64,000 nt of DNA, from assembly GCF_003334305.1 (NCBI RefSeq), contig NZ_QOWS01000006.1; one strand, written 5' to 3'. Source of the stretch: Escherichia coli. Lineage in GTDB: Bacteria; Pseudomonadota; Gammaproteobacteria; Enterobacterales; Enterobacteriaceae. The notes below the pieces were generated by a model. That model did not search any database and was not told the origin of the DNA. It saw nothing but the letters and a program-made list of their open reading frames with translations. The translations under genes and the position numbers were made by a program. Of this stretch, positions 736-41,760 are shown one piece after another (the first letter of the stretch is position 1; each line of letters starts with the position of its first letter).

Positions 736-2304
736 TTATTTCAGATTCTTTCTAATTATTTTCCCCGAGCAATTACGTGGCAGATCTTTTCTGATCTCCA
801 GATAAGAGGGCACTTTAAATTTCGCCATATTTTGTTCGCAGAAGCGGAAAAATTCCTCTTCGCTCAATGTTTCACCTTCATTCAGCACCACAAATGCTTT
901 GATGGCTTCATCGCGAATCGAATCTTTAATACCCACAACCACGATATCCTGAATTTTTGGATGGGTGGCGATGATATTTTCCAGCTCCACGCAGGAGACA
1001 TTCTCGCCACCGCGTTTGATCATATTGCAGCGGCGATCGACGAAATAAAAAAAGCCCTCTTCGTCGCAGTATCCGGTATCGCCGGTATGTAGCCAGCCGT
1101 CGGCTTCCAGCACTTTCGCAGTGGCTTTCGGGTTGAGAAAATACTCTTTGAAGATGGTTTTCCCTGGTACGCCTTTAATACAGATTTCACCGATCTCACC
1201 TGCCGGGAGCGGGCGATTGTGATCGTCGCGGATCTCCGCTTCGTAGCAAAACCCCGCCCGACCAATCGACGGCCAGCGTCGTTTATCGCCAGGGCGATCG
1301 CCGATAATGCCCACAATGGTTTCCGTCATCCCATAAGACGTCAGCAAGCGAACGCCGAAGCGTTCACAAAACGCATCTTTTTCCTGCTCCGACAAGTTGA
1401 GATAAAACATCACTTCCCGCAGGCGGTGTTGCCGATCGTTCGCTGAAGGCGGCTGCACCATCAACGTACGGATCATCATCGGAATACATTCGGTAATGGT
1501 GGCGCGGTACTTCTGCACCTGTCCCCAGAAGGCGCGGGCGCTGTATTTCTCGACCAGCACAAAGGTGGCCCCGGCAGAAAACGCCGCCATCGCCGCAGTA
1601 CACTGGCAATCGATATGAAACGCAGGCATTACCGTCAGGTAGACGTCATCGTCACGCAGTGCACACTGCCAGGCGGAGTAATATCCAGCGAAGCGCAGGT
1701 TGTAATGGGTAATCACCACACCTTTCGGTCGGGAGGTGGTGCCGGAGGTGAAGAGAATTTCCGCCGTATCGTCAGTCGATAGCGGCGGTGCATAGCACAA
1801 GGTGGCAGGTTGTTGATTTTTCAGTTGAGTAAACGAACTCACGCCATCATCAGCGGGAAGTGCCACATCTGTCAGGCAAATGTGCCGCAATTGAGTGGCA
1901 TCTTCCTGCTGAATCTGTTGATACATAGGATAGAATTGCGCACTGGTCACCAGCAGGCACGCCTGGCTATTTTGCAGGATCCACGCGCTTTCCTCGCGTA
2001 ACAGGCGGGCGTTAATCGGCACCATAATCGCGCCAATTTTTGCCAGCCCGAACCAGCAAAAGATAAATTCCGGGCAGTTGTCGAGATGTAGTGCAACCTT
2101 GTCGCCTTTGCGAATCCCCAGCGTATAAAACAGGTTTGCCGTGCGGTTAATCTCCTGATTTAACTCAAGATAACTATACCGGTTAACGACTCCGCCGCTG
2201 GATTCACAAATCAGCGCCGTTTTATGACCGTAAACGTCCGCAAGATCGTCCCACATTTGACGTAGATGTTGTCCGCCAATGATATCCATTGCACCTCTAT
2301 CCAT
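736..2304 (-). CDS. caiC: crotonobetaine/carnitine-CoA ligase (acyl-CoA synthetase family)
   Basis: 522-aa ORF; AMP-binding signature [10 protein letters not shown]; the start as I recall it is the internal MDIIGGQHL, i.e. about 2289. Confidence 0.93.
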
Positions 2305-2362
2305 TTTTGTTCGTTTGTTATTGGGCGGGCGCTAGTCAGGCAAGCCGACTGACGCCACGCGT

Positions 2363-3598
<1,236 letters not shown>

Positions 3599-7654: not shown

Positions 7655-8596
7655 ATGAACACGTTTTCTCAAGTCTGGGTATTCAGCGATACCCCTTCTC
7701 GTCTGCCGGAACTGATGAACGGTGCGCAGGCTTTAGCTAATCAAATCAACACCTTTGTCCTCAATGATGCCGACGGCGTACAGGCAATCCAGCTCGGCGC
7801 TAATCATGTCTGGAAATTAAACGGCAAACCGGACGATCGGATGATCGAAGATTACGCCGGTGTCATGGCTGACACTATTCGCCAGCACGGCGCAGACGGC
7901 CTGGTGCTGCTGCCAAACACCCGTCGCGGCAAATTACTGGCGGCAAAACTGGGTTATCGCCTTAAAGCGGCGGTGTCTAACGATGCCAGCACCGTCAGCG
8001 TACAGGACGGTAAAGCGACAGTGAAACACATGGTTTACGGTGGTCTGGCGATTGGCGAAGAACGCATTGCCACGCCGTATGCGGTACTGACCATCAGCAG
8101 CGGCACGTTCGATGCGGCTCAGCCAGACGCGTCACGCACTGGCGAAACGCACACCGTGGAGTGGCAGGCTCCGGCTGTGGCGATTACCCGCACGGCAACC
8201 CAGGCGCGCCAGAGCAACAGCGTCGATCTCGACAAAGCCCGTCTGGTGGTCAGCGTCGGTCGCGGTATTGGCAGCAAAGAGAACATTGCGCTGGCAGAAC
8301 AGCTTTGCAAGGCGATAGGTGCGGAGTTGGCCTGTTCTCGTCCGGTGGCGGAAAACGAAAAATGGATGGAGCACGAACGCTATGTCGGTATCTCCAACCT
8401 GATGCTGAAACCTGAACTGTACCTGGCGGTGGGGATCTCCGGGCAGATCCAGCACATGGTTGGTGCTAATGCATCGCAAACCATTTTCGCCATCAACAAA
8501 GATAAAAATGCGCCGATCTTCCAGTACGCGGATTACGGCATTGTTGGCGACGCCGTGAAGATCCTTCCGGCGCTGACCGCAGCTTTAGCGCGTTGA
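7655..8596 (+). CDS. fixB: electron-transfer flavoprotein alpha-subunit homologue
   Basis: 313-aa [23 protein letters not shown]...; 14 bp after fixA. Confidence 0.93.
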
Positions 8597-8646
8597 TCCA
8601 CTCTGGCAGGGCTGCATTTTGGCCCTGCCGCTGACAGGGAGCTCTT

Positions 8647-9933
8647 ATGTCCGAAGATATCTTTGACGCCATCATCGTCGGTGCAGGGCTTGCCGGTTCG
8701 GTTGCCGCACTGGTGCTCGCCCGCGAAGGTGCGCAAGTGTTAGTTATCGAGCGTGGCAATTCCGCAGGTGCCAAGAACGTCACCGGCGGGCGTCTCTATG
8801 CCCACAGTCTGGAACACATTATTCCTGGTTTCGCCGACTCCGCCCCCGTAGAACGCCTGATCACCCATGAAAAACTCGCGTTTATGACGGAAAAGTCAGC
8901 GATGACTATGGACTACTGCAACGGTGACGAAACCTCGCCATCCCAGCGTTCTTACTCCGTTTTGCGCAGTAAATTTGATGCCTGGTTGATGGAGCAGGCC
9001 GAAGAAGCGGGCGCGCAGTTAATTACCGGGATTCGTGTCGATAACCTCGTACAGCGCGATGGCAAAGTCGTCGGTGTAGAAGCCGATGGCGATGTGATTG
9101 AAGCGAAAACGGTGATCCTTGCTGACGGGGTGAATTCCATCCTTGCCGAAAAGTTGGGGATGGCAAAACGCGTTAAACCGACGGATGTGGCGGTTGGCGT
9201 GAAGGAACTGATCGAGTTACCGAAGTCGGTAATCGAAGACCGTTTTCAGTTGCAGGGTAATCAGGGCGCGGCTTGTCTGTTTGCGGGATCACCCACCGAT
9301 GGCCTGATGGGCGGCGGCTTCCTTTATACCAATGAAAATACCCTGTCGCTGGGGCTGGTTTGTGGTCTGCATCATCTGCATGACGCAAAAAAATCGGTGC
9401 CGCAAATGCTGGAAGATTTCAAACAACATCCGGCCGTTGCACCGCTGATCGCGGGTGGCAAGCTGGTGGAATATTCCGCTCACGTAGTGCCGGAAGCAGG
9501 CATCAACATGCTGCCGGAGCTGGTCGGTGACGGCGTATTGATTGCCGGCGATGCCGCCGGAATGTGTATGAACCTCGGTTTTACCATTCGCGGTATGGAT
9601 CTGGCGATTGCCGCCGGGGAAGCTGCAGCAAAAACCGTGCTTTCAGCGATGAAAAGCGACGATTTCAGTAAGCAAAAACTGGCGGAATATCGTCAGCATC
9701 TTGAGAGTGGCCCGCTGCGCGATATGCGCATGTACCAGAAACTACCGGCGTTCCTTGATAACCCACGCATGTTCAGCGGCTACCCGGAGCTGGCGGTGGG
9801 CGTGGCGCGTGACCTGTTCACCATTGACGGCAGTGCGCCAGAACTGATGCGCAAGAAAATCCTCCGCCACGGTAAGAAAGTGGGCTTCATCAATCTAATC
9901 AAGGATGGCATGAAAGGAGTGACCGTTTTATGA
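8647..9933 (+). CDS. fixC: FAD-dependent oxidoreductase (ETF-quinone oxidoreductase-like)
   Basis: 428-aa ORF with N-terminal dinucleotide-binding motif DAIIVGAGLAGS. Confidence 0.93.
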   Translation: MSEDIFDAIIVGAGLAGSVAALVLAREGAQVLVIERGNSAGAKNVTGGRLYAHSLEHIIPGFADSAPVERLITHEKLAFMTEKSAMTMDYCNGDETSPSQRSYSVLRSKFDAWLMEQAEEAGAQLITGIRVDNLVQRDGKVVGVEADGDVIEAKTVILADGVNSILAEKLGMAKRVKPTDVAVGVKELIELPKSVIEDRFQLQGNQGAACLFAGSPTDGLMGGGFLYTNENTLSLGLVCGLHHLHDAKKSVPQMLEDFKQHPAVAPLIAGGKLVEYSAHVVPEAGINMLPELVGDGVLIAGDAAGMCMNLGFTIRGMDLAIAAGEAAAKTVLSAMKSDDFSKQKLAEYRQHLESGPLRDMRMYQKLPAFLDNPRMFSGYPELAVGVARDLFTIDGSAPELMRKKILRHGKKVGFINLIKDGMKGVTVL

Positions 9934-35189: not shown

Positions 35190-35888
35190 CTAACCCGTAA
35201 TCCCCAATAGTGCCGAAGCACTCGCCTTACCGCTCAACAACTCATTGGTCTTACCCTGCCAGGCGATGCGCCCGTCGGCGACCACCACCGAGCGTGTGGC
35301 GATCCGCGCCGCATCTTCCACACTGTGCGACACCATCAATAGCGTCATTTTTTGCTGCTGGCAGCTCGTGCTCACCAGCGTCAGCATCTCCTGACGTAAC
35401 GCCGGATCGAGCGCAGAGAACGGTTCATCGAGCAATAAAATCGGCTGTTCGCGCACCAGACAACGCGCTAACGCCACGCGCTGTCGCTGACCGCCGGAAA
35501 GCTCGCCCGGTAACCGCGCCATTAAATTATCAATCCCCATCTGGCGGGCGATAGCGTGCATTTTCTCCTGCTGCGCCGCGTTCAGCTTCAATCCCGGATT
35601 AAGCCCCAGCCCGATGTTCTGCGCGACCGTCAGGTGGCTGAACAGGTTGTTCTCCTGAAACAGCATCGATACCGGACGGCGTGACGGCGGCGTCGTGGTG
35701 TGATCAACGCTGTCGATAGTCAGCGAACCGCTGGCTGGCGTCAGAAAACCGGCAATCAAATTCAGCAGGGTACTTTTACCCGCGCCGCTTGGCCCGAGGA
35801 TTGCCACCTGCTCGCCGCGTTCTACCGTTAAGCTAAAACGCATCGGCAAATGGTGATAAAGCCAGGTGATATCAGTCAGTTTTAACAT
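35190..35888 (-). CDS. thiQ: thiamine ABC transporter ATP-binding protein
   Basis: Track ORF extends to 35909; the internal start [20 protein letters not shown] at 35888 gives 232 aa; Walker [10 protein letters not shown]; 17-nt overlap with thiP. Confidence 0.9.
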
Positions 35889-37482
35889 TTCGCCCCGGTA
35901 GTTTTTCAATCACGGTAAACAGCAGAAAACAGAGTAGTAGCAGAATTAACGCGGTGACCGCGCCGTCCTGGCTGCGATAGGAGCCAATTTGCTGGTAGAG
36001 ATAAAACGGCAGGGTACGGAAATCATCGTTACCGAACAACGCCACTACGCCAAAATCACCAATCGACAGCACGCAGGCAAAAGCCAGCGCCTGCGCCAGT
36101 GGACGTTTCAGGGCGTGCAGCTCGACCACTTTTAAGCGCGACCAGCCTTCAATGCCCAGCGACTGACACAATATACTGTAGCGGGCGGTGATATCGCGCA
36201 TCGGGTTTTCCAGTACTTTCAGCGCATAAGGGATCGCCATTAACGCATTGGTGAAAATCACAATGCCGTCAGCAGATTGTGGCAGGCCGATAGTGTTGTT
36301 GAGCAGTAAAAAGAAGCCGGTAGCCAGCACAATCCCCGGCATGGCGAGGATCAACATGCCGCTCATCTCCAGCGCCTGACCCGCCAGCATTTTCTGCCGC
36401 GCCCGCAGTTCGCGACTGCTCCATAGCAGCATCATGGTCAGCACTACGCACAATACACCTGCCGCCAGCGCAATACGCAACGAGGTCCACAGCGCCTGCC
36501 ACAGCACCGGTTGTGCCAGCACTTCCGGCAACTGGCGATTTACGCCATCGACGATCACCGCCAGCAACGGTGGCAGCAACAGCAGCAGCGCCAGCACTAT
36601 TAACACCGTGTCGCAAATGCGGCTATGCAGACGATCGTCCGGATCGCGCCAGCCTTGCAGCAGCGTGGTACCGGGCGCAATGGCCTTACTTAGTCGCTGA
36701 CTCAACAGCACCAGCCCAAGGCAACACACCATCTGGAGCAGCGCCAGCATCGCCGCGCGGGCAGGATCGTAGTCGTAACTCAGCGCCTGATAAATAGCCA
36801 GCTCGATAGTAGTTGCCTGCGGACCGCCGCCCAGCGATAGCACGGTGGCGAAGCTGGCGAAACAGAGCATAAAGATAAGCGCGGCAACCGGCGGGATTTG
36901 TCGCCGTAGCCACGGCCATTCGACGAAGCGGAAAAAATGCCAGCCGCGCATCCCAAGCTGGGCGGCAAGCTGACGTTGTTCGCCGGGAATGTTTTCCAGT
37001 GCCTGGAGTAATAAGCGGCTCGCCATCGGCAGATTAAAAAATACGTGCGCCAGCAAAATGCCTTGCAGGCCGTAGGGCGAAAAGGTCCACTCCAGACCGA
37101 GCGATTGGCAGAGCGATGCCAGCCAGCCCTGACGACCATAGACGCTAAGAATGCCGAAAACAGCAACTAGCACCGGGAGGATCAAGGTCATTGCGCACAG
37201 ACGCAACAGCGCCAGCCGACCCGGAAAGCGCCTGCGATAGAGGGCGCGGGCGAGGAATATCGCGGGTACGACAGAGAGTAGCGCCGAGAGAAACGCCTGC
37301 CAGAAGGAGAAGCGCACCACATGCCACAGGTAGCTGTCCTGCCAGACTGCCACCCAGTTACCCTGCGGCGCGTTCCACCACAGGGCGAGAAACGCCGCGA
37401 GCGCAACCGCTACCACCAGCGTGGCGGCGCTTACACCTGGAATTAACCAGCCGGGAATTAACGGCTGACGGCGCGTTGCCAT
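35872..37482 (-). CDS. thiP: thiamine ABC transporter permease
   Basis: 536-aa multi-span [25 protein letters not shown]... Confidence 0.9.
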
Positions 37483-38441
37483 TCGCTAATCCATGCCTGA
37501 CGTTGTGCCGCCACTTCAGCTGGTGTGAACTCCAGCGTGGTGGCCGGTTTGGTCAATTGTTCAAACCCGGCAGGCAGCGTGACATTTGCCACCGGATACA
37601 TCCAGTTACCGGTTGGGATCGCATTCTGAAAAGCCGGAGAAACCATAAACTGGAGGAATTTTTGCGCCAGCTCCGGCTGCTTGCTGGCAGCGGTGCGGGC
37701 GGCGACTTCCACCTGCAGATAGTGACCTTCGCTAAAGTTCGCGGCGGCGTAGTTATCTTTTTTCTCTTCGAGAATGTGATAAGCCGGAGAGGTGGTGTAA
37801 CTCAGTACCAGATCGCTTTCACCTTTTAAAAACAGGCCGTAGGCTTCGCTCCAGCCTTTGGTGACCGTGACGGTTTTCTTCGCCAGTTTTTGCCAGGCTT
37901 GTGGGGCGTCATCGCCATAGACTTTTTGCATCCACAACAGCAGGCCCAGCCCCGGCGTACTGGTGCGCGGATCCTGATAAATCACCCGCCAGTTTTGATC
38001 GCTCTCAACCAATTCTTTCAGGCTTTGCGGCGGGTTTTTCAGTTTGTTCTTGTCATAGACGAAGGCGAAATAGCCGTAATCAAACGGGACGAAAGTGTCA
38101 TTATTCCAGCCGCCGGGAACGTTAACGGCATCCGCTGCCACACCGCTTTTGGCAAATAGTCCGGTTTTACTGGCGGCGTCTAACAGATTGTTATCCAGCC
38201 CCAGCACCACATCGGCTTTACTATTTTTGCCTTCCATCCGTAGACGGTTGAGAAGCGAAACGCCATCTTCCAGCGCCACCAGTTTCAGTTCGCAGTTACA
38301 GTCGGCTTCAAAAGCTTTTTTGATCTTTGGACCAGGCCCCCAGTCGGCGGCGAAGGAATCGTAGGTATAAACAGTCAGAACGGGTTTAGCGAAAACGGGC
38401 GCTGTGCACAGCAACAGCAGGGGAAGACATTTTTTTAACAC
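37458..38441 (-). CDS. thiB: thiamine/TPP periplasmic binding protein
   Basis: Track ORF starts at 38453 (MRCKVLKKCLP); the known N-terminus MLKKCLPLLLLCTAPVFA corresponds to a GTG start at 38441; signal peptide present. Confidence 0.88.
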   Translation of the reverse strand: MLKKCLPLLLLCTAPVFAKPVLTVYTYDSFAADWGPGPKIKKAFEADCNCELKLVALEDGVSLLNRLRMEGKNSKADVVLGLDNNLLDAASKTGLFAKSGVAADAVNVPGGWNNDTFVPFDYGYFAFVYDKNKLKNPPQSLKELVESDQNWRVIYQDPRTSTPGLGLLLWMQKVYGDDAPQAWQKLAKKTVTVTKGWSEAYGLFLKGESDLVLSYTTSPAYHILEEKKDNYAAANFSEGHYLQVEVAARTAASKQPELAQKFLQFMVSPAFQNAIPTGNWMYPVANVTLPAGFEQLTKPATTLEFTPAEVAAQRQAWISEWQRAVSR

Positions 38442-38479
38442 TTTGCACCTCAAAAAAGAGTGGCAAAGGACTTGAGAAG

Positions 38480-38565
38480 GAGCCTCAAATCCCTTCGCCG
38501 GCGTTATCCGGATCAGGTTCGACGGGTATTTTCTCAGCGCACGCGTTTGCGTGGCACCCCGTTGA
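38480..38565 (-). ncRNA. TPP (thi-box) riboswitch in the thiBPQ 5' leader
   Basis: Minus-strand GGGGTGCCACGCAAACGCGTGCGCTGAGAAAATACCCGTCGAACCTGATCCGGATAACGCCGGCGAAGGGATTTG carries the conserved CUGAGA and ACCUGAUCNGGAUAAUGCC-like thi-box. Confidence 0.85.
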
Positions 38566-38604
38566 GAACGGCGTTAGTGTAGTGATTTTGTTATCTACCA
38601 GCAA

Positions 38605-40260
38605 TCATGGATCCGGCGGCGCAAACCACGCTGATTTAAAATCGAACCAGCCGAGGGTATTCATACGCAGGCCGCGCATACTGCGTTGTCCCTGAATGAT
38701 CAGCCAGTGGTGGATAAGCGGCACCATTGCTTTACTGGCGACCAGTTGCTGGCACCAGTTCGCCAGGTTCATTTCGCCATTGCGCCAGCGGGCGGCGTCG
38801 GCTTGCCAGTCGATCGGAATACAGTGTTGGAGCAGCGGCACCTCGCACAAGTGCGCGAACAGCGAAAAATCCAGCGGCAGCGTAAAGTTGGCGCTATTAA
38901 GCCAGATATCGCTCTCGATCTCTCCTTCATGCCACTGATCGTAGTCGATCTCTTTGATTTCCAGCGTGACCTGGTGGCTTGCCAGAATCTGCTGCATGAT
39001 CCCGGCAATCACCCGATGCTCACTGTGATCCTGATAAAAGGTCAGGGTGAGGCTTTCCAGACCAGCCGGTTTTTCGCTCTTTATGGTGCGGGCATGGTGC
39101 CAACGGGGGAGCAGTCCATAAGCCGGGAACCACAGTTGCTGGTACTGTTCCTCAGCGAAATAGACCAGATTAGTTGGAGAAAGCACATAGCTTACCCAGT
39201 CCCTGACTTGCTGATTCGCACCGCGATGGGTGCGGCTGTCGAATAGTAAATAGTAGCAACCTTCCTCCAGGCGGCTTTCAATCTCTTTTTCCTCGCCCTG
39301 TGGACCTTTTAGCATCAGACCTCCAGCTGGCTCGTCGGCAATTTCCGGCAGAACCCAGACGTTAACTTCATCGATTAATGCCCGGTAACCGAAGAAGTCA
39401 TCGAATGCCTGAATTTTCAGTTGATTGGTGGTGTTGCGGATCACCGCATACGGACCGGTGCCGATGGGATGGCTGGCAAAGTTACTGAGGGTTTCCCATT
39501 CGCGCGGCAGGATCATCGCCGGAACTTGCCCCAGCAGTAACGGTAACCAGCGGTCCGGTTGCGTGAGATGGATATCCAGCGTCCAGGGCGTCGGCGACAC
39601 AATGTCCGCAATATGCGAATAGAGCGGCAGCGTATTGATTCGTTTTAAAGAGGCGATCACGTCGTCCATTTCCAGTTCACGACCATGATGAAAATGGACT
39701 CCTGGACGCAAAAAGAAACGCCAGTGAAGCGGTGATATTTGCTGCCAGTGGTGGGCGATGTCTGCTTCCAGTTCCCCATTTTCCTCATTTATGCGCGTTA
39801 GCGAACTGAAGATTTGCCGGGCAATATGGGTTTCGGAACGGCGCAATGCGCTGCCAGGTAGCAGATTACGCAACGGACGATAGTAGAGCACGCGCAGGAT
39901 GTGCCGCCCCTGGCGGAAGCTGCGGCCCAGATGAGAAACCAGCATTTGCCGCACAGTCGCTTTGTCGCCAACCAACTGCACTAGTTGGTCGATACGATCC
40001 TGCTCCAGCAGGTCTTCCGCCCGCTGTTGCTGAAGCGCCAGCCCGGTATAGAGGAATGTCAGACGCGAGCGTTTACCACGCCCGACTTCCGCTTCCCACG
40101 TCAGCCAGCCGCGATCCTGCATGGTGTTGAGCAGGGTGCGCATATGACGACGCGAGCAGCTCAATAACGCTGCCAGTTCGTTGAGCGTTGTGTCCTGCGA
40201 TTTACCCTCGCAGCATTGCCACAGGCGGATGAACTGTTGTTGCAGACGAGCAGATGGCAT
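38605..40260 (-). CDS. sgrR: transcriptional activator of sgrS (N-terminal HTH plus solute-binding-protein-like domain)
   Basis: Track ORF extends to 40281; the internal start [21 protein letters not shown] at 40260 gives 551 aa. Confidence 0.9.
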
Positions 40261-40327: not shown

Positions 40328-40554
40328 GATGAAGCAAGGGGGTGCCCCATGCGTCAGTTTTATCAGCACTATTTTACCGCGACAGCGAAGTTGTGCTGGT
40401 TGCGTTGGTTAAGCGTCCCACAACGATTAACCATGCTTGAAGGACTGATGCAGTGGGATGACCGCAATTCTGAAAGTTGACTTGCCTGCATCATGTGTGA
40501 CTGAGTATTGGTGTAAAATCACCCGCCAGCAGATTATACCTGCTGGTTTTTTTT
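40328..40554 (+). ncRNA. sgrS: sugar-phosphate stress small RNA SgrS (Hfq-dependent, dual-function)
   Basis: Starts GATGAAGCAAGGGGGTGCCCC...; contains the base-pairing segment GAGTATTGGTGTAAAATCACCCG and ends in the terminator hairpin CCAGCAGATTATACCTGCTGG plus a U8 tract; divergent from sgrR. Confidence 0.9.
40349..40480 (+). CDS. sgrT: 43-aa peptide encoded within SgrS (glucose-uptake inhibitor)
   Basis: ATG at 40349 gives MRQFYQHYFTATAKLCWLRWLSVPQRLTMLEGLMQWDDRNSES; it is the 3' part of track ORF 40181-40480. Confidence 0.85.
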   Translation: MRQFYQHYFTATAKLCWLRWLSVPQRLTMLEGLMQWDDRNSES

Positions 40555-40581: not shown

Positions 40582-41760
40582 ATGATCTGGATAATGACGA
40601 TGGCTCGCCGTATGAACGGTGTTTACGCGGCATTTATGCTGGTCGCTTTTATGATGGGGGTGGCCGGGGCGCTACAGGCTCCTACATTGAGCTTATTTCT
40701 GAGTCGTGAGGTTGGCGCGCAACCTTTCTGGATCGGACTCTTTTATACGGTGAATGCTATTGCTGGGATCGGCGTAAGCCTCTGGTTGGCAAAACGTTCT
40801 GACAGTCAGGGCGATCGGCGAAAACTGATTATATTTTGCTGTTTGATGGCTATCGGCAATGCGCTATTGTTTGCATTTAATCGTCATTATCTGACGCTTA
40901 TCACCTGTGGTGTGCTTCTGGCATCTCTGGCCAATACGGCAATGCCACAGTTATTTGCTCTGGCGCGGGAATATGCGGATAACTCGGCGCGAGAAGTGGT
41001 GATGTTTAGCTCGGTGATGCGTGCGCAGCTTTCTCTGGCATGGGTTATCGGTCCACCGTTGGCCTTTATGCTGGCGTTGAATTACGGCTTTACGGTGATG
41101 TTTTCGATTGCCGCCGGGATATTCACACTCAGTCTGGTATTGATTGCATTTATGCTTCCGTCTGTGGCGCGGGTAGAACTGCCGTCGGAAAATGCTTTAT
41201 CAATGCAAGGTGGCTGGCAGGATAGTAACGTACGGATGTTATTTGTCGCCTCGACGTTAATGTGGACCTGCAACACCATGTACATTATTGATATGCCGTT
41301 GTGGATCAGTAGCGAGTTAGGATTGCCAGACAAACTGGCGGGTTTCCTGATGGGGACGGCAGCTGGACTGGAAATACCAGCAATGATTCTGGCTGGCTAC
41401 TATGTCAAACGTTATGGTAAGCGGCGAATGATGGTCATAGCAGTGGCGGCAGGAGTACTGTTTTACACCGGATTGATTTTCTTTCATAGCCGTATGGCGT
41501 TGATGACGCTGCAACTTTTTAACGCTGTATTTATCGGCATTGTTGCGGGTATTGGGATGCTATGGTTTCAGGATTTAATGCCTGGAAGAGCGGGGGCAGC
41601 TACCACCTTATTTACTAACAGTATTTCTACCGGGGTAATTCTGGCTGGCGTTATTCAGGGAGCAATTGCACAAAGTTGGGGGCACTTTGCTGTCTACTGG
41701 GTAATTGCGGTTATTTCTGTTGTCGCATTATTTTTAACCGCAAAGGTTAAAGACGTTTGA
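40582..41760 (+). CDS. setA: sugar efflux transporter (MFS)
   Basis: 392-aa 12-TM-like ORF MIWIMTMARRMNGVYAAFMLVAF... Confidence 0.9.
   Translation: MIWIMTMARRMNGVYAAFMLVAFMMGVAGALQAPTLSLFLSREVGAQPFWIGLFYTVNAIAGIGVSLWLAKRSDSQGDRRKLIIFCCLMAIGNALLFAFNRHYLTLITCGVLLASLANTAMPQLFALAREYADNSAREVVMFSSVMRAQLSLAWVIGPPLAFMLALNYGFTVMFSIAAGIFTLSLVLIAFMLPSVARVELPSENALSMQGGWQDSNVRMLFVASTLMWTCNTMYIIDMPLWISSELGLPDKLAGFLMGTAAGLEIPAMILAGYYVKRYGKRRMMVIAVAAGVLFYTGLIFFHSRMALMTLQLFNAVFIGIVAGIGMLWFQDLMPGRAGAATTLFTNSISTGVILAGVIQGAIAQSWGHFAVYWVIAVISVVALFLTAKVKDV

Follow-up and report, generated by a model that had tools for sequence, protein, structure and literature searches.

The window analyzed here is a 64,000-nucleotide stretch of Escherichia coli DNA. 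Its minus strand carries, in order, sgrR, an intergenic leader, thiB, thiP and thiQ, as seen both in the list of open reading frames and in the mapped annotation; the assignment of thiBPQ rests on annotation and on tblastn. thiBPQ is the thiamine/TPP ABC-transporter operon and its leader is 128 nt long. K-12 coordinates (NC_000913.3) were converted to window positions by subtracting 37039. A 501-nt query around the riboswitch shows 100% identity with several complete genomes, and 5400 of 5426 E. coli genomes contain a match to it. The principal genes and RNA features are as follows.

38605..40260, minus strand: sgrR coding sequence (list of open reading frames, mapped K-12 and RefSeq annotation), with a translation ending in FAPPDP before the stop
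38607..38605, minus strand: sgrR stop codon TGA (sequence and annotation)
38472..38571, minus strand: TPP aptamer (RF00059), a full-length cmscan match and a RefSeq feature
38477..38569, minus strand: SroA small RNA of the K-12 annotation, 93 nt (sroA at 75516..75608 of NC_000913.3, offset 37039), comprising the aptamer plus 7 nt
37458..38441, minus strand: thiB (tbpA), GTG start at 38441..38439
35872..37482, minus strand: thiP, downstream of thiB
35190..35888, minus strand: thiQ, downstream of thiP
40328..40554, plus strand: SgrS RNA (RF00534, 228.8 bits) with sgrT within it, divergent from sgrR

When the whole window was compared with Rfam 15, cmscan returned a single match to the TPP riboswitch family (RF00059), at 38571..38472 on the minus strand. 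It scores 66.1 bits (E 8.9e-11) against a gathering score of 54.3 bits and covers model positions 1-105 of 105, untruncated. The CTGAGA of the thi-box is read at 38537..38532 on the minus strand and is followed by ACCTGATCCGGATAACGCCGGCGAAGGGA. The consensus for ligand contact is present within 38537..38491, with CUGAGA in the pyrimidine-sensor arm and ACCUGAUC..GG..UAA..CC..GCG.AGGGA in the pyrophosphate-sensor arm. Both the thi-box and the ligand-contact sequences align to the RF00059 consensus with the posterior probability that cmscan denotes by an asterisk. In RefSeq, records that match the window identically have a “TPP riboswitch” annotated at exactly these positions (3230..3329 of the locus, equivalent to window 38571..38472). 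The aptamer lies on the same strand as thiB and ends 43 nt before its GTG.

These results bear out the original prediction of a minus-strand TPP riboswitch upstream of thiBPQ with a thi-box in its leader. The comparison with the RF00059 covariance model, proposed there as the check, gave the significant minus-strand match described above. The interval proposed for the element, 38480..38565, spans the aptamer from P1 to P1, and the predicted aptamer start about 40 bp past the sgrR stop agrees with a P1 that begins 38 nt after that codon (38607..38605). The element is the E. coli thiB (tbpA) TPP riboswitch, at the same locus as K-12 SroA, and this identity was already known. As one of the three textbook E. 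coli TPP riboswitches, annotated in RefSeq and previously dissected by mutagenesis, SHAPE-seq, toeprinting and single-molecule FRET, it holds little value as a discovery. Elsewhere in the window, Rfam matches were recorded on the minus strand for the leucine operon leader (RF00512, 46534..46683, 145.8 bits) and for naRNA4/CssrE (RF02564, 22661..22740, 75.8 bits), the latter resembling a REP-type repeat element.

Leader positions are numbered from the published +1, such that nt n corresponds to window position 38570 - n. The cmscan alignment resolves the aptamer into the following parts.

38566..38562 with 38488..38484, minus strand: P1 (nt 4-8 with 82-86)
38561..38556 with 38529..38523, minus strand: P2 (nt 9-14 with 41-47)
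38555..38537, minus strand: P3 hairpin (nt 15-33)
38537..38532, minus strand: CUGAGA (nt 33-38)
38517..38492, minus strand: P4/P5 (nt 53-78)

The optional P3a helix is absent, with 10 model positions deleted in the cmscan alignment; all pairs from P1 to P5 are canonical except at this deleted helix. The K-12 thiB/tbpA TPP riboswitch (SroA, b4762; RF00059) has the same locus, flanking genes, +1 and expression platform as the window. Over 321 aligned nt the two are 98% identical, and within the leader they differ by only two bases, both in the P3 loop (38547..38548). With one extra substitution in the promoter spacer at 38596, the window shows no functionally notable difference from the K-12 element. 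The P3 loop varies within the species: the window allele has AAAC, K-12 GUAC and an O157-type strain GGAC. At 38596 the window has A where K-12, the O157-type strain and E. albertii have T.

Downstream of the aptamer, the unconstrained ViennaRNA fold of nt 1-145 (-48.4 kcal/mol, z = -2.65) contains two further elements.

38468..38492, minus strand: anti-P1 (antisequestering) stem, nt 78-87 with linker nt 93-102, taking in the P1 3′ strand
38441..38468, minus strand: expression-platform hairpin, nt 102-129, pairing the start codon's first base as well as the Shine-Dalgarno sequence GAGG (38451..38448)

In this fold, the pairs of the anti-P1 stem join nt 79-87 to linker nt 93-101, and the hairpin pairs G119-G121 of the Shine-Dalgarno sequence and G129 of the GUG start. 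The P1 3′ strand (nt 82-86) has alternative partners in nt 4-8 and nt 94-98, so that P1 and the anti-P1 stem are mutually exclusive. When the aptamer was forced in a constrained fold, the anti-P1 stem was lost and the Shine-Dalgarno hairpin retained. Because this hairpin is predicted in both states, plain thermodynamic folding fails to reproduce the ON/OFF difference, and constrained folding of the leader yielded none at the Shine-Dalgarno sequence. The literature attributes the difference to cotranscriptional competition.

The family membership, anatomy, conservation, synteny and promoter footprint of the riboswitch were established by the present analysis, and its ligand response, translational mechanism and transcription start are taken from the literature. 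TPP-dependent translational repression has been demonstrated for thiB: weakening the sequestering stem by mutation breaks regulation, the 3′ half of the linker is essential, and the anti-P1 stem has itself been probed by mutation (Berman 2023, PMC10578472). In the same study, mismatch and rescue mutants of the incumbent (P1 5′), substrate (P1 3′) and invader (linker) strands shifted the switch towards OFF or ON in agreement with a strand-displacement model. In toeprinting assays 30S binding is blocked by TPP, and cotranscriptional sensing is the more efficient, with pause sites at nt 104, 117 and 136 cited from earlier work (Grondin 2024, PMC11487190). The mutation G35C, which alters the G of CUGAGA at window 38535, abolishes regulation (Grondin 2024, PMC11487190). 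For the K-12 allele, the binding-site mutants G35C and G17C both lose regulation, and toeprint and reporter assays are concordant (PMC10578472, PMC11487190).

In the mechanism described for this element, the aptamer (nt 4-86) folds while the leader is transcribed. Binding of TPP locks P1, so that the linker CUCAAG is unable to invade the P1 3′ strand; the downstream hairpin then pairs the Shine-Dalgarno GAGG and the GUG start, and 30S binding is blocked (OFF). Without TPP, the linker displaces the P1 5′ strand to form the anti-P1 (antisequestering) stem, allowing thiB to be translated (ON). TPP also lowers the thiB mRNA level (Grondin 2024, PMC11487190), a drop that is a secondary effect. Involvement of Rho at thiB is still disputed, since the lower mRNA reported by Grondin stands against the lack of any bicyclomycin effect (Berman 2023, PMC10578472).

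The two other E. coli TPP riboswitches offer a useful comparison. Like thiB, thiM is a translational OFF switch in which the Shine-Dalgarno sequence is hidden on TPP binding, and its secondary effects at the mRNA level likewise need part of the coding region. What sets thiB apart from it is a GUG start together with an anti-P1 “invader” that is encoded separately, in the linker. The thiC riboswitch shares the aptamer family and a cotranscriptional sensing aided by pause sites. It is, however, larger and holds Rho-dependent termination signals within the riboswitch itself, whereas the shorter thiB element does without the optional P3a helix.

Related loci were gathered by a DNA pattern search of genome contigs with CTGAGANNNTACCCNNNGAACCTGATCNGG, a pattern so generic that TPP riboswitches from many phyla were matched. 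At least 15 useful Enterobacterales loci were among the matches listed; one of them, in Gilliamella, is not adjacent to thiB. By tblastn and Rfam, the order sgrR, TPP match (63-75 bits), thiB is kept in at least 14 Enterobacterales loci. The genera with this order are Escherichia (E. albertii), Enterobacter, Klebsiella, Leclercia, Siccibacter, Superficieibacter, Acerihabitans, Pectobacterium (in which the locus ends before sgrR could be seen), Dickeya and Edwardsiella. Side observations from these genomes include a ~55-nt insertion in the P3 arm of the thiB riboswitch of Dickeya oryzae (locus L102, ~2296..2366; Rfam 66.5 bits), in which CATGTAC occurs three times and CATGCAC once. The sok antitoxin (RF01794) was also found near sgrR-thiB in Siccibacter/Superficieibacter (L109 6760..6911, L028 14536..14688), with none in the window.

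Across an alignment of 17 leaders, P1, P2, P4 and P5 are invariant, with 100% of cells paired. As a consequence of this invariance within Enterobacterales, covariation in these helices gives no support beyond conservation; nor does it in the anti-P1 stem. The invariance of P2, P4 and P5 is partly circular, as the search pattern fixed the aptamer core. P3 varies between taxa in sequence and length, and its hairpin is formed in 16 of the 17 leaders. For the anti-P1 stem the paired fraction is 93.5% of cells, compared with 20-72% when its 3′ partner is slid, and its changes are one-sided only (e.g. U-A to U-G). The helix of the Shine-Dalgarno hairpin is likewise conserved, with UA changed to CG at one pair in four sequences.

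A further reading of the leader is that the ~93-nt fragment of the SroA annotation (38569..38477) also acts in trans as a small RNA with its own targets, which would be compatible with the cis riboswitch. K-12 annotation lists SroA as an ncRNA. In Salmonella, a ~100-nt transcript accumulates under tigecycline while tbpA mRNA is unchanged, and its deletion reduces survival. Nevertheless, the literature on SroA/thiB that was examined gives no validated target, and the fragment amounts to the stable aptamer extended by 7 nt, and its 3′ end lacks a terminator, as expected of a product of leader decay or pausing. We consider a trans-acting role unlikely.

As regards transcription, the published +1 used by two laboratories maps onto window position 38569, 35 nt past the sgrR stop. 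Grondin 2024 counts the U of the GUG start as U130, and its oligo MSR5 starts GTTCTCAACGGGG directly after the pBAD +1 (PMC11487190). The construct of the second laboratory begins at the Vogel 2003 transcription start (Berman 2023, PMC10578472). The K-12 sroA 5′ end, 75608, also maps to 38569, and 5′ RACE in Salmonella placed the start 129 nt upstream of the tbpA start codon. It is formally possible that the 38569 end, as seen by Vogel 2003 and the Salmonella RACE, is a processing site and not a primary (triphosphate) end. Upstream of it, two putative hexamers were recognized.

38569, minus strand: published +1 (G) of sroA/thiBPQ (Grondin 2024; Berman 2023/Vogel 2003; K-12 sroA 5′ end; Salmonella 5′ RACE)
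38576..38581, minus strand: putative -10 TACACT (4/6), separated by 17 bp from the -35 and by 6 nt from the +1
38599..38604, minus strand: putative -35 TTGCTG (3/6), directly after the sgrR stop and kept beside the espY2 island junction

The gap reads TGA-TTGCTG-N17-TACACT-N6-G. A sigma-70 core promoter requires ~35 bp, with a -10 that has A at position 2 and T at position 6 and lies 5-9 nt ahead of a mapped start, and a -35 located 16-18 bp beyond it. Because the -35 abuts the stop, the spacer is 17 bp and the -10 lies 6 nt before the +1, such a promoter fits the 35-bp gap exactly. The original prediction had held that a promoter of its own would scarcely fit into ~40 bp, a view that this arrangement does not support: both putative hexamers are accommodated with the +1 at 38569. 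The hexamer match is weak (7/12), and such sites occur at 6.7 per kb per strand in the window, which on sequence alone is chance frequency. A stricter consensus promoter scan of 38300..39100 found no promoter at threshold. Since that scan called nothing, the promoter call rests on the relaxed match together with conservation. A lacZ fusion with the “natural promoter” alone was active and insensitive to TPP, though the upstream limit of the fragment was not given (Grondin 2024, PMC11487190).

A sigma-54-like sequence, GG-N8-TTGCT, was also considered over the sgrR stop (38600..38614, minus strand) and rejected. With 16 such sites in the window against 25 expected, and a TTGC that is not conserved outside Escherichia, it is probably a chance occurrence. 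A separate GGGCAC...TTGCT at 40347..40333 on the minus strand lies near the RpoN gSELEX peak reported for sgrR (K-12 77346; Shimada 2021, PMC8743547).

Two other sources of thiBPQ transcription had been put forward as plausible, read-through from sgrR and a promoter inside the sgrR 3′ end. In the first, thiBPQ would be transcribed mainly as part of one sgrR-sroA-thiBPQ operon and 38569 would be a processing site. The gap of just 35 nt agrees with this reading, as does an intrinsic terminator scan of the minus strand over 38300..39100, which found none after sgrR and before the riboswitch. Databases likewise give sgrR-sroA-tbpA-thiPQ as one unit (quoted in Shimada 2021, PMC8743547). That single unit is, however, a computational inference only, and on nitrogen depletion sgrR mRNA rose 6.5-fold with no increase of thiQ (Shimada 2021, PMC8743547). 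The activity of the promoter-only fusion (PMC11487190) also counts against it. In the second case, one more weak minus-strand site lies within 200 nt upstream (GTGCCG-17 bp-GATCAT, 38724..38696). Sites of such quality nonetheless occur at chance frequency, and a start there would fall ~120 nt upstream of the mapped 5′ end.

Comparison among Enterobacterales bears directly on these possibilities. When the 17 leaders are stacked without gaps and anchored on P1, one of TACACT, TACAAT and TAGAAT fills the same six columns in every row. The distance from the sgrR stop to the promoter varies between 0 and ~80 nt, and the spacing of the -10 from P1 does not change with it, which argues against read-through. 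TTGCTG occurs at the -35 position only in Escherichia. A conserved CTTTCG-like motif, a poor match to TTGACA, takes this position in Enterobacter, Leclercia, Klebsiella, Siccibacter, Superficieibacter, Pectobacterium, Dickeya and Edwardsiella. One may suppose that CTTTCG is bound by an activator or by some alternative sigma factor, or that transcription of sgrR occludes the thiB promoter where the two overlap at the sgrR end, and hence that the operon is under unrecognized transcriptional control; we regard this as improbable. If true, occlusion by sgrR would link sugar-phosphate stress to thiamine uptake.

Natural variation within E. coli provides further evidence. In 1035 of the 5426 complete E. 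coli genomes (~19%), including O157:H7-type strains, a ~1-kb island lies between sgrR and the riboswitch. It carries the type III secretion effector gene espY2 on the opposite strand, convergent with the operon (7997..9000 of locus L003, and the same in L004). The insertion point is the sgrR stop codon, window 38605/38606; the window itself has no island. Homology to the window stops exactly at this stop and resumes at GATTGCTGG...TACACT, which means that island strains keep only 37 bp with the proposed -35 and -10. The C-terminus of SgrR in these strains ends in PPDPE, compared with PPDP in strains without the island.

In island strains, 1 kb with a convergent gene separates sgrR from the riboswitch, and no sgrR sequence remains beside the riboswitch. 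Given this island, the -10 fixed in 17 of 17 leaders and the rise of sgrR without thiQ, read-through is hardly likely to be the main source. A promoter within the sgrR 3′ end, at odds with both the published +1 at 38569 and the 37 bp kept by island strains, is less likely still. Transcription of the thiB TPP riboswitch/SroA leader thus most probably begins at G 38569, under a weak sigma-70-type promoter that fills the 35-bp gap. We infer that these footprinted hexamers serve as the functional promoter, with only minor read-through from sgrR; some is possible because no intrinsic terminator follows sgrR. Taken together, the promoter footprint across genera and the natural polymorphism of the espY2 island argue for a thiBPQ promoter packed against the sgrR stop, so that the sgrR-sroA-thiBPQ operon of the databases calls for caution. 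A by-product of the analysis is thus a correction to operon annotation.

The island strains also differ on the far side of sgrR. In both that were examined (L003, 6010..6338, and L004), sgrT lies directly beside leuD and setA is absent. In the window (40582..41760) and in K-12, setA is located between sgrST and the leu operon.
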